DNA of 64,000 nucleotides from Candidatus Poribacteria bacterium. Lineage in GTDB: Bacteria; Poribacteria; WGA-4E; PCPOR2b. The notes under the pieces were generated by a model that had not been told where the DNA came from, did no database searches, and saw only the letters and a list, made by a program, of their open reading frames with translations. Location of the stretch: NCBI GenBank assembly GCA_965116925.1, contig OZ220744.1:5120001-5184000 (forward strand). The letters are read 5' to 3'. Positions 28,772-39,803 of this stretch are shown here, piece by piece. Position numbers and translations under genes: made by a program. Position 1 is the stretch's first letter; the number at the start of each line of letters is the position of its first letter.

Positions 28772-29521
28772 ATGCCAGTTCAAAAAACACAGGCGATTGT
28801 CATTCGCTCACATCCACTCGGTGAAGTGCACAAGATTATCCGGTTCTACACCATTGAATTTGGCAAAGTCAGTGCGGTGGCACACGGTAGTAGGCGACCC
28901 AAGAGCCGTTTCGGAGGAAGCCTTGAACTCCTCAACTACGGTAACCTTGTGTTCTTTGAATACCCGAATAAAGACCTCCATAGGGTCGATGACTTTGACC
29001 TGATTGATGCCTTTGACCCAATCAAAGCGGACTTTGACCGCACCACTTACGGTTGTTATTTGGCAGAACTGATTGATGCCACAGAGCTAGCAGGGCAATT
29101 GGCAGACCAGAGCGTCTTCCACCTACTGCAATACGCATTTGAAACGCTGGCACAGACCGAAGATATTCCGTTGCTAGCGCGTGCGTTTGAACTCCAATTT
29201 CTGGGGTTGACAGGCTACGCACCTCAACTCTCGCGGTGTGTCACCTGTGCGGAGGTATTCCACGGTGCCACGGTACATTTCAGTCCGAGCCATGGCGGTT
29301 TGCTCTGTGCCAATTGTGAGGGGAACGACACAACCGCGAGACCGATTTCACGTGGAAGTTGTGAACTGATGAAGCAGCTGCAAAAATTCGGCTTTTCTTA
29401 TCTACACCGCTTTCGCGCCTCCGATCTCAATCACCGAGAGCTTAAGTTTGTCCTTTCAAACTTCATCTCCTATCATACCGAACGCACTTTGAAAAGCCGC
29501 GAATTTATTGACAATTTATAA
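28772..29521 (+). CDS. recO: DNA repair protein RecO
   Basis: T.AIVIR...GE..KI....T...GK....A.G.R..KSRF; CxxC...GG..C..C zinc motif. Confidence 0.95.
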   Translation: MPVQKTQAIVIRSHPLGEVHKIIRFYTIEFGKVSAVAHGSRRPKSRFGGSLELLNYGNLVFFEYPNKDLHRVDDFDLIDAFDPIKADFDRTTYGCYLAELIDATELAGQLADQSVFHLLQYAFETLAQTEDIPLLARAFELQFLGLTGYAPQLSRCVTCAEVFHGATVHFSPSHGGLLCANCEGNDTTARPISRGSCELMKQLQKFGFSYLHRFRASDLNHRELKFVLSNFISYHTERTLKSREFIDNL

Positions 29522-29523
29522 AG

Positions 29524-29729
29524 AGGACTTACGCAGCCAACTGTAGTTGCCCAATTCATTGGGTGTTTTTACTGTAGTTGCCCAATTCATCGGGTGTTTT
29601 TACTGTAGTTGCCCGATTCATCGGGTGTTTTTACTGTAGTTGCCCGATTCATCGGGCATAGGCAGAATCTATACCCATCGTAGGCGGGACATCTTGCCCC
29701 GCGCCAACTGCGCTGAATGCCCAAGTCCT
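29524..29729. mobile_element. Family-A MITE containing a 31-bp tandem repeat
   Basis: AGGACTTACGCA...TGCCCAAGTCCT, TSD ATAAA; ~4 tandem copies of ACTGTAGTTGCCC(A/G)ATTCAT(C/T)GGGTGTTTTT at 29540-29657. Confidence 0.85.
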
Positions 29730-29823
29730 AATAAAGTGTGAGGCGTGGGATAGTATTAGGCATACTCCGTATGCCGTAACTCTGCACACCCCGATCTATC
29801 GAGGTTCGTTCATAGTGCCTAAT

Positions 29824-29931
29824 TATAGTGAATTCTAAAAATAAATAGACACTTTCGCTCCCCATGTTTGGTAGGCACTGTTTCCAACGGCGCCGATTTG
29901 GAGTGTCTCGTTAATTCTCAAATCTACCATA
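29824..29931. mobile_element. Family-B MITE
   Basis: TA-TAGTGAATTCTAAAAATAA...TTAATTCTCAAATCTACCA-TA. Confidence 0.8.
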
Positions 29932-30023
29932 TAACGCACGTTGCTATCTATTGAAAATCCATCAATTTTCCCGTAGACGGGCGGGGTTCCCCCGCCCGTC
30001 AGGTATTCAACCTTTCGCTCCAG

Positions 30024-30213: not shown

Positions 30214-30988
30214 ATGCCAAAGCACTTTCACGAAAAACTAATCAATCTCCTCAAAACCGACCCCCGTTTCGTTGACGCCGAAGGCGAGCTAGTCAAAGCA
30301 GCGGTGATAGATCGGGCATGGAAGATCGACCACGACCTCTTGGGAAGATAGCAGATACGATGCCAACATCTACGGAACGCAAATTGTAAAATCACTCGTA
30401 CCTAACTGTGACTTCGCTTTTCCAAAATCACTTTGGAATGTCTATGACTGTTTGTATTCGGTGGTAGCCGATGATAAAGACGCGATTATTTTAGATTTCT
30501 TCGGCGGGAGCGGTACAACTGCCCATACCGTGCTGGAATTAAACAAAGATGGCGGGAACCGAAAATTCATTATTTGTGAGCAAATGCACTACGTTGAAAC
30601 GGTAACAAGGGAGCGCATCAAAAAGGTTATTGAGCAAAACAATTGCGGCGACTTCATCTATTGCGAACTAATGCCATACAACCAAGCCTTCATCGACAAA
30701 ATCCAAGCTGCCCAATCCTCCGAAGAGCTGGTAGCACTCTGGCGCGACATCGCCGAAAACTCATTCCTGAACTGGTACGTCAACGCAGAAATCCCGGAAG
30801 ATGCGGTAGAGGATTTCATCGCTATCGGTCAAGGCGAAAATGGGTTAAAAAAACAGAAAAAACTCTTGACGGAACTGCTGGATAAGAACCAATTATATGT
30901 GAACCTTTTGGAGATAGAGGACGAGGATTTCGGCGTCAGTGAGGAAGATAAGGCGTTGAATCGGGCGTTTTATTGTGATGCTTCCTAA
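30214..30988 (+). pseudogene. Type III R-M methyltransferase (mod) with a large internal deletion
   Basis: N-terminus MPKHFHEKLINLLKTDPRFVDAEGELVK stops at ~30351; another frame resumes WEDSRYDAN..F.FPKS...ILDFFGGSGTT...NKNQLY-like C-terminus; no DPPY motif and no res gene. Confidence 0.8.
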
Positions 30989-31880: not shown

Positions 31881-31909
31881 TTGACAAATAGATTTGATTG
31901 GTTTATAAT
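31881..31909 (+). promoter_or_regulatory. Consensus sigma70 promoter upstream of CBASS
   Basis: TTGACA-17 bp-TATAAT, overlapped by inverted repeats. Confidence 0.75.
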
Positions 31910-32072
31910 TTGGCGAATTTTTTGAATTTTTGTCAACCAATCTTTCTGTTAGTAGAATTATGCCGTAAATCCATTTACCAGTTACACTCTTGTTTATTTT
32001 ACTTGCTTTTTTTAACACATGTATAAAATTTAACGTTTGCGTAATGCTGGACAGCATAAAGGAAATTTTTCT

Positions 32073-33584
32073 ATGGCAAAATCCATTGACGCACGAAGAA
32101 AGGGGGATGAATACCAAGCTAGATTCTTTTGGTTGAAGCTACTTGAACTGAGAACTGATGATTATGTTGAATCAGTTACCTTTGAAAGTGATGAAGTATC
32201 TTTTGTGGATGATATTGTTGTTTCCTACTGTGAGCCTAAACTAGATCGGGGGACAGGTAAGCGAATTGTTCGCGACCTATTTCAGTGTAAGTATCACATG
32301 ACACAACGCGACGCGTTCACTCATGAAAAACTGATTGAACCGCGTTTTATAAAGCGTAAGATTTCCATGCTTAAATGCCTGTACGACGCATATTTGAAAC
32401 TTTCAGGAGAGTTAGATCCAGATACATTTCGATTGTATATTGTCTCCAACTGGTATTGGGATTACCGGGATCCACTTGCTAAGTATTTACATGAGGAAAT
32501 GATTCGTCCAGACTTTTATGAAAAAGGGACGCGGTCGATGAGGGATATAGCACGCTCAAGATGGTACAGGCATCTTTCCATATCACCGGAAGAACTTCGT
32601 TCATTCTTAGATACTGTTCGGTTTAGTCTGGGAAAAAATCTTATTGATTTAACAAGGGAAATGGAACTGCGTCTTAAACTTGCTGGGCTGCAACCGATTG
32701 ACCTGACTGTGACTAACATTGTTTATGATGACCTCGCTTGGAAGCTTTTTGGGCGGGGATGCAACTCTTTTGATAAAAATTCCTTTAACCAAATGATACG
32801 CGAAGAAAAACTGGTGGTTTCGCCGCCCACAGAACACAGTGAAATTTCCATTCAAAGTTTCGCGCAATATGCACGACGACCCCGTGATCTTCAAGCAACG
32901 CATCTTGATTTATGCAAATTTTTTGATGGGCGTTTTCCGAAAGATGGTTCTTGTTGGAAACAGGAGATTCCTAAACGGGTTACGACATTCATGTTGAATG
33001 AAGGCTTGAGCAATCTGCCTCAACCCATTCATTTGTTCTTTGACTGCCATCTGAGCATTGCGTTCTTAGCGGGGCATTTGATTAGTCCTAAACATCGGAT
33101 TCAGATTATACCCACACAAAAGGAAGGAATTGACTATGTGCTTTGGGCACAGAATGTGCCCGATACCAATGATAATCTCTGGCAGTTCAAAACCATTGGG
33201 GAAATAAACAAGGAGCTGATTTTGGGGATTTCTGTGACGCATCAAATACAGACAGATCTGCAATCCTATCTAGAGGTTGAGGGTTTAAGCAACTTGCCTC
33301 AAGTTTTGGTTTGCCCAACGGGAGGTGCTAATCCCCGAGCCGTATGTGATGGGGACCATGCTTGGCAGCTTGGATATCAGCTTGCTAAACGGCTTCGCGA
33401 GATGCTCCCACATACGCGTCATACGATACACCTCTTTTTTGCGGGTCCCGTTGCATTAGGATATATTTTTGGACACACACTTCGTCATATCACTCCACAG
33501 ATTCAACTTTATGAACACGACTATGAAGGACAGCGTGGCGGACAGAGATATTATCCAAGTCTACGTATTCCTTATCAATCTTAA
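32073..33584 (+). CDS. cap4: CBASS effector Cap4 (restriction-endonuclease-like domain + SAVED)
   Basis: G.EYQARFFW...E...VDDIV...FQCKYH nuclease motif; SAVED with HLSIAFLAG and HLFFAGP...GH motifs. Confidence 0.9.
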   Translation: MAKSIDARRKGDEYQARFFWLKLLELRTDDYVESVTFESDEVSFVDDIVVSYCEPKLDRGTGKRIVRDLFQCKYHMTQRDAFTHEKLIEPRFIKRKISMLKCLYDAYLKLSGELDPDTFRLYIVSNWYWDYRDPLAKYLHEEMIRPDFYEKGTRSMRDIARSRWYRHLSISPEELRSFLDTVRFSLGKNLIDLTREMELRLKLAGLQPIDLTVTNIVYDDLAWKLFGRGCNSFDKNSFNQMIREEKLVVSPPTEHSEISIQSFAQYARRPRDLQATHLDLCKFFDGRFPKDGSCWKQEIPKRVTTFMLNEGLSNLPQPIHLFFDCHLSIAFLAGHLISPKHRIQIIPTQKEGIDYVLWAQNVPDTNDNLWQFKTIGEINKELILGISVTHQIQTDLQSYLEVEGLSNLPQVLVCPTGGANPRAVCDGDHAWQLGYQLAKRLREMLPHTRHTIHLFFAGPVALGYIFGHTLRHITPQIQLYEHDYEGQRGGQRYYPSLRIPYQS

Positions 33585-33603: not shown

Positions 33604-34737
33604 ATGAAATTACCAACCTATTTTACGAAATTTCTCCAAGAGGTTCGTCCAACAGAGAATCAAAGGGAGGATTGCAAAACAGGACATCAAACGCTACGTG
33701 ATCGGCTCACAGCAGATGAACAGTTGAAACTGATTATCGTAAGTACATTTCTACAAGGAAGTTACCGTCGAGCTACCGCTGTTCGTCCAAAGGGAGAAGC
33801 TAAGTTAGATGTAGACATCATCGCAGTAACTCGAATTAATCAGTTTGAGTACCCAAACCCAGATGACGCGATGGATCTATTCGTTCCTTTTTTAGATGAA
33901 CACTACAAAGGCAAATATCAAAGGCAGGGACGTTCATTTGGAATCGAGCTTTCGTATGTGAATCTCGATTTAGTTATTACTTCAGCACCATCCGAAGCTG
34001 AAGAAGAAATTTACGAAAGCAAAGCAGTTAGAATGGACTTTACACTTGAGGATATTGACGATTGGCTATTGACGAAGTCTTGGATTCCGCCGGCTGAAAG
34101 GGTAAACCAAACTGTTTTCTTGGAAAGCCTACGTGAGGCAGAATGGAAAACCGAACCATTATGGATTCCAAATCGCGATGCTGGCGAGTGGGAACGGACG
34201 CATCCATTAGAGCAAATCAAATGGACTTGGGCGAAGAATGCCAGTTGCAATAAGCATTATATCAATGTGGTTAAGGCAATTAAATGGTGGCAGAGAGTTT
34301 ATCATGAAGATGACCGTCCCAAAGGGTATCCGCGTGAACACCTTGTAGGTGTCTGTTGTCCTGATGCCATAACGTCTGTTGCGGAAGGAGTTACGCTGAC
34401 ATTAGAGGCCATTGTCGCGAATTACAGGACATATGCTCTGCTTAAGCGAGTGCCCTATCTTGCCGATCACGGCGTTCCTGAACACAATGTTTTGGGGCGA
34501 GTGTCTGGCGAAAAATTTGCTGAGTTTTACGAACATGCCAAGAAAGCTGCTGAAATAGCACGTGAAGCTCTTGATACTGATGATAAAGAGAAGTCTATTG
34601 AGAAGTGGCGTGAATTATTTGGCAGTAAGTTTCCGGATTCCGATGATAATGGGAATGAGGGAAATAGTTCCAGGGGTCCCTTTACGCGGTCCCCTAGAGA
34701 CCAAACTGGTGATCTAACACCTCGCAGATATGGATAA
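33604..34737 (+). CDS. cdnD: CBASS CD-NTase, CdnD-like
   Basis: STFLQGSYRRATAVRP....DVDI, QGRSFGIELSYVNLDLV, THPL.QI.W, KWW, DHGV.EH and W..LFGSKFP; C-terminal Gly. Confidence 0.92.
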   Translation: MKLPTYFTKFLQEVRPTENQREDCKTGHQTLRDRLTADEQLKLIIVSTFLQGSYRRATAVRPKGEAKLDVDIIAVTRINQFEYPNPDDAMDLFVPFLDEHYKGKYQRQGRSFGIELSYVNLDLVITSAPSEAEEEIYESKAVRMDFTLEDIDDWLLTKSWIPPAERVNQTVFLESLREAEWKTEPLWIPNRDAGEWERTHPLEQIKWTWAKNASCNKHYINVVKAIKWWQRVYHEDDRPKGYPREHLVGVCCPDAITSVAEGVTLTLEAIVANYRTYALLKRVPYLADHGVPEHNVLGRVSGEKFAEFYEHAKKAAEIAREALDTDDKEKSIEKWRELFGSKFPDSDDNGNEGNSSRGPFTRSPRDQTGDLTPRRYG

Positions 34738-36580
34738 AATGCCAAACCAGAGGGAAATCCCATATATTGTGATAGAAGCCTATAACTCTCTGCGACAACA
34801 CCGGATTGTTGAAATTAGCAAACCGATTGCTTGGAGTCAGAGCGAAGGTGCTCCGGGTTGGGTATTTGAGTGTGCTGCCAAAGTGCCCTATCCGAATCAG
34901 GAGAAGATTCCCTGTGAAGTTCCTTTACACGTCTTGATTCCTGAAGCATTTCCAAGCCAACCAGTTGAAATCGTTTCTCTGTCTGAACAAGTGAGTGGCT
35001 TCCCTCACCAAGAGGCAGGATCGAGAAAATTATGCTTGCCAGAAGAACATCTAGCTCCTCGGAATGCTCAACGGCTTGTTTGCTACGTTAAATGGGCAAT
35101 TGAATGGCTTGAGGAGGCAGCAAATGGGACACTTCTTAAACCGGATGACCCGTATGAATTACCTGCCTTTAGTTATAAATTTCACCCAATAAAATCTCCT
35201 TTAATTTTTGAAGAATCATCAGACTCCTACGAAAAATGGGAGTCTCATATTGGTCAATCTGGTCGTGTTGAATGCTTATGGGGAGCGGAAATTCCGGCGA
35301 TATTCGCTGTCAGATTCTGCGATGAAGGCGGTTCACTGATTAGAGAATCAAAATTCTCTACGGCGGTCCTAAACAAAGATGCCAAAATTGATGGGAAGTG
35401 GATTATTGTACCCGACCTCCGTTATGAAAGGCATCGCCCACCTCAAACCTATCAGGAAATGGCCGAGTTGTGTTCAAAGAATAATTTGAACTTTCACGTG
35501 ATTCTCGAAGAGGCTTGGAATCTTGAAAATTCGATTAAGTTTGGAATTCTGCTCATCGGTTTTCCAATTCCCAAAATTGTTGGACAGCCGCCCACCGAAA
35601 TCCATTGGCAACCCCTGCTTTTTAAAAATGTCAATCAGTATCTTAAGGAATTCAATATCCCGGGTGCCAAGCAGAGACCAAAAGGTCAATCTCAGACACC
35701 TAGAAAAATCTGGGGGAGATTGATAAACAATGGTAATTTTTCAGCATCTAAACAGCTGCCTTGGGGAACAGTTGAAAATGTTGCCCATGGGAGATTATAT
35801 GCAAGAGGTGCCCACCCTCCCAAGGTTCAATCGACATCTATTGCTTTTTTCGGTTGCGGCGCGTTAGGGAGTTCTGTGGCAGAATTACTTGCACGAGGTG
35901 GTGTAAACCAACTGAGCCTATTTGATCCGGATTTAACAAATTTTGGTAATCTCTGTCGTCATACCCTTGATGGCTCATCTGTCAGTGTGAATAAAGCAAA
36001 GGCGTTAGCAGCTAGACTATCGCGAGCGAACCCCCTTTCGACGGTAAGGGGGTATCCTGTAAGAATACCACTAAACTCACGATCGGATGAAGCAATTCAT
36101 CGAATGCTTGCGGAGGCCGATGTATTTGTCGATTGCACCACGAGTGAGGCAGCATTTGACTGGTTGAATCAATATGCTGTAGAAAACAACAAGCGTTTGA
36201 TTTCTTTCTTCTTCAGTTTCCATGCAGAATTGCTAACGATATGTATATCGGGTGATTCCACGTCGTGTGGGGACATATTTAAGGATTTAACATGTTCTAT
36301 CGAAAATGAAAAAACACCGCTTGATTCCGAGGTATATTTTCGTGATCCTCCAAAAGGAGAACAAATCATAGAAGGTGCAGGATGTTGGCATCCGACTTTT
36401 CCTGCTCGAAGCGCTCATGTCCAAATTCTAGCAGCGCACGCTGTAGATATTCTCAGCAACTCTATTGACTCAAAGCAAAAAATAGGGCTTGCAGCAATTG
36501 TCAAGAGGCAGTCAGTGGCGCAAAATGGTGTCCAACCAGGACCGCTTGTTGAGGTGATATGGGCAAAAGAATATCCATAA
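34730..36580 (+). CDS. cap2: CBASS Cap2 (E2-E1 ubiquitin-transferase-like)
   Basis: FPHQ..KLCL (E2 Cys); GCGALGS..A..LARGG, NLCRH, DCT and GCWHPTF (E1 Cys). Confidence 0.9.
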   Translation: MDKMPNQREIPYIVIEAYNSLRQHRIVEISKPIAWSQSEGAPGWVFECAAKVPYPNQEKIPCEVPLHVLIPEAFPSQPVEIVSLSEQVSGFPHQEAGSRKLCLPEEHLAPRNAQRLVCYVKWAIEWLEEAANGTLLKPDDPYELPAFSYKFHPIKSPLIFEESSDSYEKWESHIGQSGRVECLWGAEIPAIFAVRFCDEGGSLIRESKFSTAVLNKDAKIDGKWIIVPDLRYERHRPPQTYQEMAELCSKNNLNFHVILEEAWNLENSIKFGILLIGFPIPKIVGQPPTEIHWQPLLFKNVNQYLKEFNIPGAKQRPKGQSQTPRKIWGRLINNGNFSASKQLPWGTVENVAHGRLYARGAHPPKVQSTSIAFFGCGALGSSVAELLARGGVNQLSLFDPDLTNFGNLCRHTLDGSSVSVNKAKALAARLSRANPLSTVRGYPVRIPLNSRSDEAIHRMLAEADVFVDCTTSEAAFDWLNQYAVENNKRLISFFFSFHAELLTICISGDSTSCGDIFKDLTCSIENEKTPLDSEVYFRDPPKGEQIIEGAGCWHPTFPARSAHVQILAAHAVDILSNSIDSKQKIGLAAIVKRQSVAQNGVQPGPLVEVIWAKEYP

Positions 36581-37080
36581 ATAGACCTTCGCTAAGTTGG
36601 CAGTCTGACTGTAGACGGTATACAGTGCTCATATCCAAGTCTTGCCTGCTTAAGATGGTAAGAATGGCGCAGAAACATTATCCCAACGAGGTAGGAACAT
36701 CGTTAGTTGGCTGTTATTCTGATGATGGTTTTGAGGCTTCTGTTCTCGAACTTGCACCCTTGAGTCCAGACTCAAAAGGTTCTCGAACTTCGTTTTATAG
36801 GGGAGTTGCAGGTTTGCGAAATTTCTTTACAAAACTGCAAAAGACTTTCTCTGGTAGACGGTATTATGTGGGCGAGTGGCATAGCCATCCAGATGGTGAG
36901 CCCGTTCCAAGCAGTACGGATAACCGGAATCAGTTAGAGATTGCAAAGGACACCAAAACAGACTGTCCTGAATGTATTCTTATTATTATCGGAGGTACAG
37001 ATTCTAATTTCGATAAAATAGGTGTTTTTGTGTATTCTCGAAAGCATGGACGGGTTATGCTTTACGACGCAGATAGATGA
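36559..37080 (+). CDS. cap3: CBASS Cap3 JAB/MPN metalloprotease
   Basis: PNEVG..LVG and YYVGEWHSHP....PS.TD motifs. Confidence 0.92.
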   Translation: MGKRISINRPSLSWQSDCRRYTVLISKSCLLKMVRMAQKHYPNEVGTSLVGCYSDDGFEASVLELAPLSPDSKGSRTSFYRGVAGLRNFFTKLQKTFSGRRYYVGEWHSHPDGEPVPSSTDNRNQLEIAKDTKTDCPECILIIIGGTDSNFDKIGVFVYSRKHGRVMLYDADR

Positions 37081-37327
37081 ACAACGATCTAAAACACCGG
37101 GATATAATCCGAAAGATTACTGGGATGTCTCTGAGGTACATAAATTTTTAGATAATGGTTTCTGTGTGAGTAATCACTGTCCTGTGTGTGGAAGTTCTAC
37201 ATAACCAATAACGACGACTGATTTTTGAACTCAATTCAATAGTTACCTACTGCCTCTCTAACATCTTCCTCCTTTTCCCACCTTGACTGTGCAAGAAATC
37301 CCTCTTCTCCTTAGATCTTTTTTTTCC

Positions 37328-37385
37328 TTGAAAAATTAATCCGTTTGATTCATAATTAGGCAGGTTTAAGGGCTGTTTGTAAACC
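37328..37385 (+). promoter_or_regulatory. Promoter plus candidate operator of the HTH-ImmA/MazF operon
   Basis: TTGAAA-17 bp-CATAAT followed by GGTTTA-N11-TAAACC. Confidence 0.5.
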
Positions 37386-37419: not shown

Positions 37420-38952
37420 ATGTCAACCAAACATGACGAAATTGCCAAATTTATTGCGGCTCGGGAAGGCGTTTCTTATAATCAGGGCCCAGGTCCAGAT
37501 ATCAAAACGCCTCATCAAATTATTGAGGTGGAAACAGCCGACACCATTACAGATGCCGCTCGACAACTTCGAGGGTACAGAGGCCCCGTCTACGTGGTTG
37601 GAGTAGACTCCAAAGCCACTGAGGCGGCTTTGGAGCACTACAAAGATACAACAATTGGAGTGATGGATGCTTCCGGTAAAATCCTGAAGCGTTCGACACG
37701 CAAGAGGTCGTCTTCAATGAACATTGAAAAAGAAGAGCTTGCAACTGAACAAAGAGATACTGCGCTCATGTTGGGAGAACGATTGAAACGATTTAGGCTT
37801 GCTCGTGGCATGTCGCTTGACGACCTAGAGGCTGCTATTGATGGACTAGTTACCAAGCAAGCTCTATCAAAATATGAACGCGGGAAGATGCAAGCCAAGG
37901 TGACAACACTCAATCGAATTGCTGCCGCATTGGGAATTAAATCTGCTCAATTGTGGGGCGAACCAACCTGTCAGGTGGAGTGGGTTGCCTATCGAAAACG
38001 CGCTCGCATGGGTAAGAAAGAACAAGAACAGCTACAGAGTCTTGTCGCTGAAGTGTTGGAGAAACGGGTCTCCCTACTGGAGCGGATGGGTGAACACAAA
38101 ACTCTTGAACTTCCGATTCAAGAGTTTCCTATTTCCAAAATAGAAGACGCTGAAGGTGCTGCCCTCGTGCTCCGTCAGCAGTGGGACCTCGGCATTGCCC
38201 CAATTGCAAATCTTGTGAGTGTGCTTGAAGACCATTTCATCCACATCATTGAGGTTGATGCGATTGAAACCTTTGATGGCATTTCTGCTGTGGTGCGAGA
38301 TAACGACAAAAATGTGCTGTCGGCAGCGATCGCAACGCGCCGGGGCACACCGGGAGACCGACATCGACTCAACATAGCACACGAACTCGGACACCTGACT
38401 TTGAAATTGGGTGAAGGGATTGATGCAGAAAAAGCTGCTTTTCGATTTGGTGCCGCTTTTCTTCTGCCCGCCGAGGAATTGCGTCGGGAAGTCGGTGAGA
38501 AGTTAAGTCGAATTCAGTCAGAACAGCTCCAGTACCTAAAATGGCGTTACGGAATGAGTATTCAAGCAATTCTTTATCGGTTGAAGGATTTGCGGATTAT
38601 TACCGACTCCTACTATACACAGTGGTGCATGGAAATCAACAAATTGGGTTGGAAAAAGCGAGAGCCCATTGAAATACCTCCTGAAAAACCAAAGTGGTTT
38701 CATCAGCAGGTGTTTCGCGCGCTTTCCGAAGGATTGATAGAGGAGGAGGAAGCCGAACAACTCCTTAACGACACACTGGAGACCGCTTCATCCCCGTCGC
38801 TGATTGAACGACGCGCTTTCTTTGAACTGCCAACGGATTTGAGACGCAGCCTGTTGAGAGAACAGGCGAAGCAAATGGCGGATTATTACCAAAACGATCC
38901 CGAATGGCGCGAACTTGAAGGGGGGGACCTTGTTGAATACGAATCCACCTAA
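37420..38952 (+). CDS. Fusion: small PD-(D/E)xK-like domain + XRE HTH + ImmA/IrrE metallopeptidase + antitoxin-like acidic tail
   Basis: PDI...IIEVET; GERLKRFRLARGMSL..L....TKQALSKYE; R.NIAHELGH and E..A.RF..AFLLP; tail RRAFFELP..LRR.LL.EQA..MA.YY..D.EW. Confidence 0.8.
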   Translation: MSTKHDEIAKFIAAREGVSYNQGPGPDIKTPHQIIEVETADTITDAARQLRGYRGPVYVVGVDSKATEAALEHYKDTTIGVMDASGKILKRSTRKRSSSMNIEKEELATEQRDTALMLGERLKRFRLARGMSLDDLEAAIDGLVTKQALSKYERGKMQAKVTTLNRIAAALGIKSAQLWGEPTCQVEWVAYRKRARMGKKEQEQLQSLVAEVLEKRVSLLERMGEHKTLELPIQEFPISKIEDAEGAALVLRQQWDLGIAPIANLVSVLEDHFIHIIEVDAIETFDGISAVVRDNDKNVLSAAIATRRGTPGDRHRLNIAHELGHLTLKLGEGIDAEKAAFRFGAAFLLPAEELRREVGEKLSRIQSEQLQYLKWRYGMSIQAILYRLKDLRIITDSYYTQWCMEINKLGWKKREPIEIPPEKPKWFHQQVFRALSEGLIEEEEAEQLLNDTLETASSPSLIERRAFFELPTDLRRSLLREQAKQMADYYQNDPEWRELEGGDLVEYEST

Positions 38953-39295
38953 TCCGCGTCGGGGAGAGGTTTGGGATCTAAACTTCGATCCGACGATTGG
39001 CGCAGAAATTCAGAAAATCCGTCCCGCTGTAGTTATCAGTTCCGATCGCGTGGGACATTTGCCGATTAAGTTGGTCGCCCCAATCACCGGTTGGCAAAAC
39101 CGATTTCTGAGAAACGTCTGGCATGTTCGTATCGAGCCCAGTGGCATCAACGGCTTAACAAAGATTTCAGCTGTTGACACGCTGCAAATCCGGGGGGTGG
39201 ATGTGAAACGCTTTATTAGCAGACGAGGCAGACTCAACACAACACTTATGCAAGAGATTACTGCGGTAATCGCCGCAATTATCGAATACGAATAA
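38933..39295 (+). CDS. MazF/PemK family endoribonuclease toxin
   Basis: PRRGEVW...FDPT.G.E..K.RPAVVIS, VAPIT and S.VD..QIR.VD motifs; the start overlaps the upstream gene end. Confidence 0.93.
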   Translation: MNTNPPNPRRGEVWDLNFDPTIGAEIQKIRPAVVISSDRVGHLPIKLVAPITGWQNRFLRNVWHVRIEPSGINGLTKISAVDTLQIRGVDVKRFISRRGRLNTTLMQEITAVIAAIIEYE

Positions 39296-39337
39296 TTCTG
39301 TGCACAGGAGGTAAGGAAGGCAGCAAGTAAAAGAATC

Positions 39338-39702
39338 AAGACTTACGCACTTCAGAGTTTTGACCTGCCAGTGCCCTGCCAAATCCCTGACATTTGGCAA
39401 GATTATGGTGCCATTTGAGTGAAAAACGGTTCATAAACAGTGCGTATTTGGCAGGTCAAAAAGCCACCTGGACGTACCTTTTGTTGAGCAGTACAAATCT
39501 ACAAACGCTCTGAAGCTAGGCCCCATCAGGGTTCAGAGAGACATCGGCTAATGATGAACCCCCGATGTGGGGTTGAAATTTTTTTTTGGACCTGCCAGTG
39601 CCCTGCCAAATTACCAAATCGTGCCGGTGGGGCATTAAAGCAGCGGTGTAAATTCCGCGTAGCGGAGGAGGTTAGCTTTAAGCGTTCAACTGCGTAAGTC
39701 CT
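39338..39702. mobile_element. Family-A-ended element with atypical repeat-rich cargo
   Basis: AAGACTTACGCACTTCAGA...GTTCAACTGCGTAAGTCCT; 23-bp direct repeat at 39362 and 39589. Confidence 0.75.
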
Positions 39703-39803
39703 ATCAAATTTTTCAAAAAACTATGAAAACTATGAAAATTCCAAGAATTTTTTAACGATATTTTTCAAATAGCAGCTTGAGTGACTATAAGGAATCATTA
39801 AGG

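Follow-up and report, generated by a model that had tools for sequence, protein, structure and literature searches.

A single gene in Candidatus Poribacteria joins a nuclease-like domain, a helix-turn-helix (HTH), a peptidase and an acidic tail in one reading frame, runs into a mazF toxin gene and lies downstream of a CBASS operon. What does such a protein control, and does its reach extend to the neighbouring immune genes? We address this question in a 64,000-nucleotide stretch of DNA (hereafter the window). Our preferred reading, to which we assign a probability of about 0.6, is that a repressor-antitoxin of the XRE-COG2856 type controls a defence hotspot and would be released by self-cleavage; it draws on sequence comparison, structural models and analogy with studied relatives.

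The conserved core and its toxin

The fusion gene is a single open frame on the forward strand, from an ATG at 37420 to a stop at 38952, and encodes 510 aa ending in EWRELEGGDLVEYEST. Pfam places HTH_3 at residues 122–175 and Peptidase_M78 at residues 313–389, leaving residues 1–99 without a match. Its last 23 nt are overlapped by mazF, an endoribonuclease toxin gene of the mazF/pemK type that starts at about TTG 38930 (38930–39295, forward strand; Pfam PemK_toxin, E 2e-23), and no separate mazE ORF lies between the two. Frame reading and Pfam thus bear out the earlier note, which had described an ORF with an HTH, a HELGH peptidase and a tail overlapping mazF, no separate mazE, and a CBASS neighbour (type II by Pfam and PADLOC). 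An assembly error or one-off stop-loss, which would have undone that description, was rejected: the full-length fusion occurs without stops in 6 copies from 5 of 61 genomes, and 13 of 23 longer homologues, two of them from this genome, are 499–510-aa proteins of the same build. The shorter isoform proposed from a second ribosome-binding site and ATG at 37717 fared less well. These elements are present in the sequence but are not conserved among copies, since an equivalent GAGG 5' of the ATG occurs in 2 of 6 DNA copies and, among 13 fused proteins, 4 do not have the Met encoded at 37717 and 2 have neither internal Met; a conserved isoform was therefore discarded. Unfused relatives usually start at the equivalent of 37768 (M117). 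RNA runs matched only contigs of relatives, at shares of 0.05–0.10 and in some cases over several kb at flat depth, and are uninformative on transcription or co-transcription.

The conserved core comprises an XRE-HTH, an M78 Zn-peptidase and the C-terminal tail, followed by mazF; among 159 genomes of the order, 36 carry this module, which is also present in Chloroflexota and metagenomes. The HTH (37768–37959, forward strand; Pfam HTH_3, E 3e-11) has the recognition helix TKQALSKYE and a dN/dS of 0.06, and it covaries with the operator described below. It is followed by a long helix, the M78 (ImmA/IrrE/COG2856) Zn-peptidase and a helical domain (37960–38790, forward strand; Pfam Peptidase_M78, PADLOC RmrA). 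The HELGH motif noted earlier is intact, with peptidase residues H321, E322 and H325 (38380–38394) and E337 (38428–38430); of 49 cores, 48 keep HEXXH and all keep the third Glu. In PADLOC, 14 RmrA profiles match residues 120–449 (best E 1e-42) and the capP and capH profiles match weakly, while the top fold matches of the core are IrrE and CapP (7t5t), with 6cyj, a Mycobacterium tuberculosis transcriptional regulator, also among the matches. Pfam finds no GAF domain, and the modelled region after the peptidase is all-helical up to the tail.

Could the peptidase be a bystander? The locus might be a classical type II toxin–antitoxin system whose M78 domain is passive, serving to sense a metal or ligand or to scaffold dimerisation, with activation through Lon, ClpXP or the toxin:antitoxin ratio. 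The lack of a GAF domain and the 6cyj match would fit such a role, as would the occurrence of DUF955 domains in the regulators RamB and PrpC (PMC5499597), the reported ClpX dependence of the related RipB antitoxin and the persistence, in 7 of 55 loci, of HTH–tail proteins with the M78 part deleted. However, mazF does not follow these M78-less proteins, and the catalytic Glu and three Zn ligands are retained in 48–49 of 49 cores; we consider a passive peptidase unlikely.

The tail (38791–38952, forward strand; ~53 aa) matches nothing in Pfam, NCBIfam, PDB sequences or the Atlas, and its identity emerges from stand-alone genes, a complex model and its coupling to mazF. Its family contains 520 clusters. 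In other phyla it occurs as a stand-alone gene upstream of mazF (outside Poribacteria, mazF overlaps in 6 of 10 cases), some stand-alone relatives carry a MazE-type DNA-binding domain (P0185), and the tail is also found C-terminal to MazE/AbrB, DUF433, DUF2283 and HTH domains. In a set of 75 evaluable metagenome loci, mazF follows 23 of the 24 regulators that have a tail; it also follows 6 further regulators, all with an acidic C-terminal extension, and 45 regulators have neither tail nor mazF. PIN/DUF3368 accounts for 26 of 44 scanned genes behind these 45 regulators, and PIN toxin genes occur only behind tail-less relatives. The best explanation is that this branch of regulators has MazF as its toxin and sister branches have a PIN toxin. 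No tail, mazF or nuclease-like domain was found in 80 viral loci.

Complex modelling supports binding of the tail to MazF, with a score of 0.74 against 0.00 for the best control, a level attained by 116 of 157 solved pairs and by 2 of 215 mismatched ones, though part of the score may reflect likeness to MazEF complexes already solved. Contacts agree at 48% or more, and partner pLDDT is at least 58. The modelled tail, helical and then acidic, spans the MazF dimer and touches R29 and T51, which we take to be the catalytic residues. MazF itself keeps its active-site motif, has a dN/dS of 0.16 and has as closest solved relatives MazF9 and MazF7, with S. aureus and B. subtilis MazF also related. 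Together these lines uphold the earlier suggestion of an antitoxin tail, which we regard with high confidence as an unnamed MazF-antitoxin domain predicted to bind the MazF dimer. The accompanying idea that proteolysis frees MazF did not find support in its simple form: cutting the tail off would be insufficient, because tail-sized proteins, presumed antitoxins, stand alone.

Predicted operators and the defence hotspot

A palindrome, GTTKAYAA-N20-22-TTRTMAAC, lies within 120 bp upstream of the regulator in 56 of 74 evaluable, independent metagenome loci, none of which was used for deriving the motif. Elsewhere in the same loci it occurs nowhere in 673 kb (control, 1). Where the helix reads KQALSKYE, the operator is present at 14 of 15 loci, compared with 0 of 24 within 550 bp where the helix is changed, the latter group being a single clade. 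Across the 159 genomes, 12 of 14 exact sites are upstream of a module, 6 of these 12 at cargo promoters; the pattern in reverse, used as a control, matched 11 sites across these genomes, so the signal is one of position and not of excess count. This genome has 2 exact and 6 one-mismatch sites, 4 of the latter inside long open frames. The operator is common to the tail-less, PIN/DUF3368-linked relatives. Many full cores of family f2 are without a recognisable operator ("18 of 40 lengths and contexts aside"), with no alternative evident in that family, and a repeat finder did not report the operator. Given how few sites this genome has and how the site tracks the regulator gene from taxon to taxon, LexA or another global regulator of the host is an unlikely binder of the palindrome. 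From these patterns, the regulator is very likely an autorepressor.

The earlier note placed a palindromic operator after the module promoter. One is present there, but in degenerate form; it is the CBASS promoter that has the exact copy. The module promoter (TTGAAA-17-CATAAT; 37328–37356, forward strand), a consensus match only, is conserved in relatives; motif search places its operator, ATTCATAA-N21-TTGTAAAC, at 37348–37384, with two mismatches, both in the left arm, and an exact right arm. The CBASS promoter, read from the sequence as TTGACA (31881–31886), a 17-nt spacer and TATAAT (31904–31909) on the forward strand, aligns as a homologue of the module's own promoter. It carries the exact predicted operator GTTTATAA-N21-TTGTCAAC (31901–31937), found by motif search, whose left arm overlaps the -10 box. 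This is the only match in the window at one mismatch or fewer, against 0.01 expected, for a pattern whose degenerate letters were picked after both cargo sites of this genome had been seen.

The promoter serves a CBASS operon on the forward strand, comprising a nuclease-SAVED (Cap4-like) effector (32073–33584; Pfam SAVED, PADLOC SAVED_PDDEXK, E 5e-111), a CD-NTase (33604–34737; Pfam SMODS, PADLOC cyclase, E 3e-158), Cap2 (E2-E1; 34730–36580) and Cap3 (JAB; 36559–37080), the last two by Pfam and PADLOC. The effector ORF is readable from TTG 32037, and its homologues start at 32073. Further upstream is a 178-aa remnant of a type III RM methyltransferase gene (30452–30988, forward strand; PADLOC MTase_III, E 8e-41, covering profile positions 529–700 only), at whose position relatives have intact res/mod genes. 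The hotspot is ordered recO, type III RM, cargo, module, glyQS. A second module copy in this genome adjoins a long Argonaute operon that is likewise preceded by the operator. The operator occurs at 4 of 4 module-adjacent CBASS loci versus 0 of 13 others, and at 2 of 2 module-adjacent Argonaute loci versus 0 of 5 others. Regulation of the adjacent CBASS, raised as a possibility in the earlier note, thereby gains direct sequence support, and we dropped the view of CBASS as a coincidental neighbour.

The cargo operators could nonetheless be relics of promoter duplication; the module would then be an addiction element that regulates itself and stabilises the hotspot but exerts no control over cargo. 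Homology between cargo and module promoters extends over more than 70 bp, the first codons of the nuclease-like domain reappear as a copy at the start of the Argonaute gene, every case comes from one genus, and toxin gene decay is frequent, with 12 of 29 full cores followed by a broken mazF or by none. Yet in the six cargo promoters, which come from that genus and probably from two capture events, 12 of 21 spacer columns vary and the arms stay at consensus, with no variation in the fixed right-arm columns; the left arm falls on the -10 box (in other taxa, on the -35 box), and its conservation is therefore partly promoter constraint. The exact copy is at the cargo and the degenerate one at the module, and if the HTH recognises its operator at all, it would also bind an exact copy. 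A relic devoid of function is, in our judgement, very unlikely, and we retain control of cargo by the regulator as the better account.

The N-terminal nuclease-like domain

The first 96 residues, or domain (i) (37420–37707, forward strand), are assigned a putative minimal PD-(D/E)XK-like fold from homologues, a structure model (pLDDT 94) and fold search. The best match, 3dnx, has Z 8.3, rmsd 2.5 and 13% identity over 93 aligned residues, a Z near the level that the tool calls common, with the top rows agreeing on the fold; most top matches are restriction-endonuclease-like. The domain can be likened to small PD-(D/E)XK-fold proteins such as SPO1766 (3dnx), YaeQ and the XPF/Hef nuclease domains. 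We presume that 3dnx is linked to MmcB, a link not found in the parts of the literature surveyed. Domain (i) has no Foldseek match at E 0.001, no family profile, no similarity to the core and, like the core, no significant PDB-sequence match; neither it nor MazF matches a PADLOC profile, and the Atlas lead, PDDEXK_14, stands at 0.83 only. Alignment identifies H5, D27, E36, E38 and T39 as conserved. The motif is E-x-E, not E-x-K, with E replacing K in 82 of 87 stand-alone proteins; all 13 fused proteins retain D27, E36 and E38, and with a dN/dS of 0.18 the domain is still under purifying selection.

These 87 homologues indicate that domain (i) is normally a gene of its own. The four-domain chain that the earlier note treated as one system was accordingly rejected as a conserved unit, as 27 of the domain's 36 copies in the order are located away from any such regulator and all 160 metagenome and viral loci lack it; domain (i) is accessory because most copies of the system do without it. 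The linker (37708–37767, forward strand), which includes ATG 37717, derives from intergenic DNA on alignment with an unfused relative, whose TGA stop aligns with TCA at 37714–37716; its dN/dS is ~1.6, from few changes. By this alignment, domain (i) is fused through loss of a stop codon, in one lineage, and the best explanation is that this operon once contained it as a small PD-(D/E)XK-like gene of its own. Fused copies do not form one clade (AU p 2e-5), which allows repeated fusion; the tree of domain (i) was a quick one with poor resolution. That domain (i) instead acts as another toxin or as an effector nuclease, which the regulator would keep inactive, as RosmerTA antitoxins do, until linker cleavage frees it in a two-toxin abortive-infection device, would suit its PD-(D/E)XK-like fold, invariant residues, constraint and possible repeated fusion, but is highly improbable given the copies away from the regulator, the lack of an M78 gene near ten scanned stand-alone copies, the E where the motif usually has K, and its absence from the 160 loci.

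Proposed release from repression and related systems

In the mechanism that we favour, the tail would hold the MazF dimer and keep MazF off, a highly probable step with strong comparative and model support. The HTH would bind the palindrome across the promoter and repress it, which strong comparative support makes very probable. Cargo genes (CBASS or the long Argonaute) would have captured a copy of the module promoter with an exact operator, and the module's own operator would be the weakened one, leaving cargo tightly repressed and the regulator-antitoxin still produced; the sequences make these two steps, taken jointly, probable. Under stress, the intact Zn-peptidase may cut the regulator itself and derepress cargo and mazF. 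Such self-cleavage, for which no site was identified in the regulator, is a candidate activity that we put at even odds by extension from ImmA, IrrE and CapP. A trigger of DNA damage or ssDNA is a tentative suggestion, made by analogy only, and the protein lacks the GAF domain that provides IrrE and CapP with their ssDNA groove; that MazF becomes active only if the tail is destroyed too is somewhat doubtful. A bolder version appears distinctly unlikely: one chain would combine stress sensor, protease, repressor and MazF antitoxin as the fixed end of the hotspot, hand an operator-bearing promoter copy to exchangeable cargo, and by a single self-cleavage induce the immune operon and arm MazF, with the PD-(D/E)XK-like domain as a DNA-damage sensor replacing GAF.

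We conclude that the system is a variant of the XRE-COG2856, RosmerTA and CapP–CapH systems. Predictions from 2009 and 2017 cast XRE-COG2856 (HTH-DUF955/M78) fusions with PIN or RelE toxins as three-component toxin–antitoxin systems with self-cleaving regulators; the passages on them name PIN, RelE and Xre as partners and describe no operator (PMC2701414; PMC5499597). Like them, the module has an HTH, an intact HEXXH peptidase with a third Zn ligand, a toxin gene directly downstream and predicted self-cleavage and derepression, and its nearest tail-less relatives have PIN/DUF3368 genes behind them and share the module's operator. Unlike them, it has MazF and a predicted MazF-binding tail. RosmerTA (RmrA; 10.1101/2022.05.11.491447; PMC10440598; RipAB, 10.1101/2025.09.02.673660) likewise pairs an HTH and Zn-peptidase antitoxin with a toxin, but the RmrA profiles end before the tail, RmrT toxins, described as having other folds than MazF, do not adjoin here, and the Kita pair is reported without a confident complex model, in contrast to the discrete tail docked on MazF. 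CapP and CapH, CBASS regulators that include 15 apparent fusions (10.1101/2022.04.27.489752; see also 10.64898/2026.05.16.725639), share with our locus an M78 peptidase and HTH repressor beside CBASS and a palindrome, here a predicted site, in the CBASS promoter. Those regulators are described as upstream and divergent, whereas the module is downstream and co-directional; CapP, with a peptidase-HTH-GAF architecture, is reported to bind ssDNA via the GAF domain absent here; and the antitoxin tail, mazF and a family mostly without CBASS set our system apart. The family appears to have captured CBASS via a copied promoter. The antitoxin gene overlaps the toxin gene, as in MazEF, and a helical-then-acidic C-terminus is modelled across the MazF dimer; unlike MazEF, the DNA-binding part is XRE plus peptidase, not AbrB or RHH. 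We found no published XRE-M78-MazF pairing in the literature surveyed, in which the NetFlax dataset gives toxin partners by number only.

The signal and targets of XRE-COG2856 fusions have been described as open (PMC2701414; PMC5499597). This locus makes such regulators testable: it offers an operator predicted for much of the family, MazF as a toxin that is simple to read out, and a separable 53-residue antitoxin domain, which also accounts for small hypothetical proteins in several hundred clusters. Less weight attaches to the four-domain fusion itself, a lineage-specific detail. The locus suggests promoter capture by a downstream toxin–antitoxin regulator, in contrast to a dedicated divergent regulator, as a route by which CBASS and Argonaute come under stress control. 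As predicted from sequence, the regulator probably silences both the toxin and the neighbouring defence genes until stress.

Architecture of the module and its antitoxin tail

The 510-aa fusion ORF (37420-38952, plus strand) is an open frame whose product joins domain (i) (residues 1-96) to an HTH_3 domain (residues 122-175, Pfam), a Peptidase_M78 domain (residues 313-389, Pfam) and a C-terminal tail; mazF follows on the same strand with a 23-nt overlap. Both this architecture and the coupling of tail to mazF are evident from sequence comparison. In PADLOC the fusion protein is matched best by RmrA, the antitoxin of RosmerTA.

As the earlier note had proposed, the tail is very probably an antitoxin domain for MazF, a reading supported by stand-alone tail genes, mazF coupling and a model of the complex. 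The tail profile takes in 55 loci, 10 of which, outside Poribacteria, have the tail as a gene of its own (52-107 aa): at six of them an overlapping mazF belongs to the same subfamily (truncated in one case), one has a mazF fragment and three have no mazF. At 50% identity the profile gathers 520 clusters, mostly of 50-130 aa with the domain C-terminal, and HTH-M78-tail proteins of about 390 aa number four among the best 150 of these. One protein of the tail family has a true MazE/AbrB domain ahead of the tail, and two loci from Chloroflexota likewise pair HTH-M78-tail with mazF. Modelled on the MazF dimer, the docked tail scored 0.74 versus 0.00 for the best control, a mark reached by 116 of 157 solved pairs and 2 of 215 mismatched pairs and possibly helped by solved MazEF complexes; contact agreement between runs was at least 48% and partner pLDDT at least 58. 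The model supports the predicted tail-MazF binding.

Behind 29 full cores (HTH, peptidase and tail), the mazF frame is open across 100 or more of its 119 positions in 17 (two without a 5' end), broken in seven and absent in five. Because mazF is broken or absent behind 12 of the 29, the regulator, judged from these frames, is often retained after the toxin has been lost, as would be expected if it had an independent regulatory role. Of 80 loci from metagenomes, 23 carried tail and mazF, one the tail alone and six a mazF together with a divergent acidic extension on the regulator; 45 had neither and five were too short. Of the 44 genes scanned behind tail-less regulators, 26 were PIN/DUF3368.

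At one locus (L036, genome G026) the HTH-M78-tail and mazF pair is present as two tandem copies, the first mazF having an early stop and the second being divergent. The mazF genes of L051 and L076 are also divergent, with the RP of the QKIRPAV motif altered (and the tail shortened in L076), and their products are possibly inactive or of other specificity. Proteins of 137-154 aa at L058, L061, L064, L066, L068, L069 and L071 lack the peptidase, so that HTH and tail are almost directly joined, and are not followed by mazF; they are an orphan derivative in family f2, which also includes full cores.

A predicted operator at regulator and defence promoters

Relatives' promoters share an inverted repeat of 8 bp whose arms are separated by a non-conserved 21-nt spacer. 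In an independent test allowing up to one mismatch, GTTKAYAA-N20-22-TTRTMAAC lay at most 120 bp upstream of the regulator in 56 of 74 evaluable metagenome loci and was absent from the rest of the 673 kb of metagenome DNA covered (reversed control, one match). Across 40 genome loci, operator and regulator were likewise coupled: the motif occurred within 550 bp at 14 of 15 loci with the recognition helix KQALSKYE (including those from which it was derived) and at none of 24 with a changed helix, all of one clade.

Upstream of the module, on the same strand, lies a complete type II CBASS (nuclease-SAVED, CD-NTase, E2-E1 and JAB; Pfam, PADLOC), the island being bordered by recO and glyQS. At this recO-type III RM-cargo-module-glyQS spot the cargo is CBASS in four genomes, and in one it is an Argonaute broken by a transposon. 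The module's own promoter in the window bears an operator copy with two mismatches, and the window's sole match at one mismatch or fewer (0.01 expected) is an exact copy at 31901-31937, overlapping the CBASS -10 box. Exact sites number 14 in 159 genomes (control pattern, 11), and all but two of them precede a module: six are within 400 bp of it, four are some 5.5 kb away at CBASS promoters and two are at a long-Argonaute promoter. Operators were found at all module-adjacent cargo (CBASS 4/4, Argonaute 2/2) versus 0/13 CBASS orthologs and 0/5 other Argonaute orthologs elsewhere, at up to two mismatches. Control of CBASS, which the earlier note had raised as a possibility, is probable.

Since the module promoter and those of the cargo are homologous, and the Argonaute gene opens by repeating the initial codons of domain (i), these sequences point to promoter capture, by which cargo would have acquired a copy of the module promoter. 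Among six cargo promoters compared, the spacer varies at 12 of its 21 columns, whereas the fixed columns of the right arm are all unchanged (P about 0.003 assuming independent columns, the promoters being kin).

A second module copy, 84% identical (L021:6438-11600; G000:C1, about 2357400-2362600, minus strand), has as cargo a long Argonaute of 675 aa (pAgo in PADLOC, E 6e-220) and a 311-aa protein with hydrophobic C-terminal stretches and no family match; the locus is preceded by a type III methyltransferase-like gene and followed by lnt-prfB. Short repeats at window 29500-29950 and 39325-39720, either side of the island, have many copies genome-wide (blastn) and high depth. A 60-codon open frame at 37022-37204, which overlaps the end of the JAB gene and terminates in CVSNHCPVCGSST, is open in three relatives too, with variable cysteines, and is probably a gene remnant. 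In two relatives (L271:2626-3441 and L272:2740-3528) a gene of ~265 aa sits between type III res and mod, its L272 product having a trypsin-like peptidase domain (Pfam Trypsin_2).

Domain (i) and its fusion to the regulator

The earlier note overweighted the four-domain fusion: domain (i) has 36 matches in the order (159 genomes), six fused, three adjacent but separate and 27 elsewhere, while near-full-length HTH-M78-tail cores number 38, spread over 36 genomes. A one-off stop loss or assembly artefact is contradicted by six stop-free fused copies in 5 of 61 genomes (single genus; two copies in the window's genome), and when longer proteins homologous to domain (i) were sought, 13 of 23 matches had the same build. 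On this sequence evidence the fusion is real but local. Domain (i) is indeed separate in some homologs, as its own gene directly upstream of the regulator in three other genomes, and in one of these a TGA stop aligns with the window TCA at 37714. Since 2 of 13 fused proteins have neither internal Met, the product made is probably the fused chain, and a conserved short isoform from the second start that the earlier note envisaged is not supported. For the six fused DNA copies, dN/dS was 0.18 in domain (i), 0.06-0.19 in core parts, 0.10 in the tail, 0.16 in mazF and about 1.6 in the linker. Fusion and fission are labile, since a single clade of fused cores was rejected (AU p 2e-5, 18 of the 40 tree rows) and one split locus sits among fused ones in the tree.

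Stand-alone domain (i) is a 96-aa family with 87 matches, several copies adjoining restriction-modification or transposase genes. Its predicted model (pLDDT 94) is PD-(D/E)XK-like, with 3dnx as top structural match (Z 8.3); Foldseek gave nothing at E 0.001. Deletion products retain its first ~26 codons, joined to the tail at L053:3917-4180 and left as a remnant before the regulator at L012:1439-1516, and so show that domain (i) was once in the operon more widely. In proteins P0102, P0105 and P0107 it forms the C-terminus of an unrelated, unannotated ~440-aa protein, a second kind of fusion.

Peptidase, known systems and proposed mechanism

Of 49 cores, 48 retain HEXXH (the exception is one deletion) and all 49 the third Glu, so that the M78 peptidase looks active from its sequence. 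The full-protein model (pLDDT 86) has IrrE and CapP as closest fold matches but lacks their GAF domain, which is described as forming the ssDNA groove (10.64898/2026.05.16.725639). HTH-COG2856 fusions are predicted three-component TA systems with PIN or RelE toxins (PMC2701414, PMC5499597), whereas the toxin here is MazF. RosmerTA pairs HTH-peptidase antitoxins with other toxins (10.1101/2022.05.11.491447; PMC10440598; 10.1101/2025.09.02.673660), and CapP and CapH, which appear fused in 15 cases, control CBASS and are encoded upstream of it in divergent orientation (10.1101/2022.04.27.489752; 10.64898/2026.05.16.725639; for related work see PMC13705206, PMC6929052, PMC4963859). In a literature search of incomplete coverage, neither a MazF-paired HTH-M78-antitoxin fusion nor the tail family or the operator was found described.

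We hypothesize a proteolytic trigger: the HTH-M78-tail protein would repress via the operator and, upon a putative signal, may cut itself, with MazF conceivably released. Because a cut-off tail would resemble the stand-alone antitoxins, cleavage is more likely to cause derepression than to set the toxin free.
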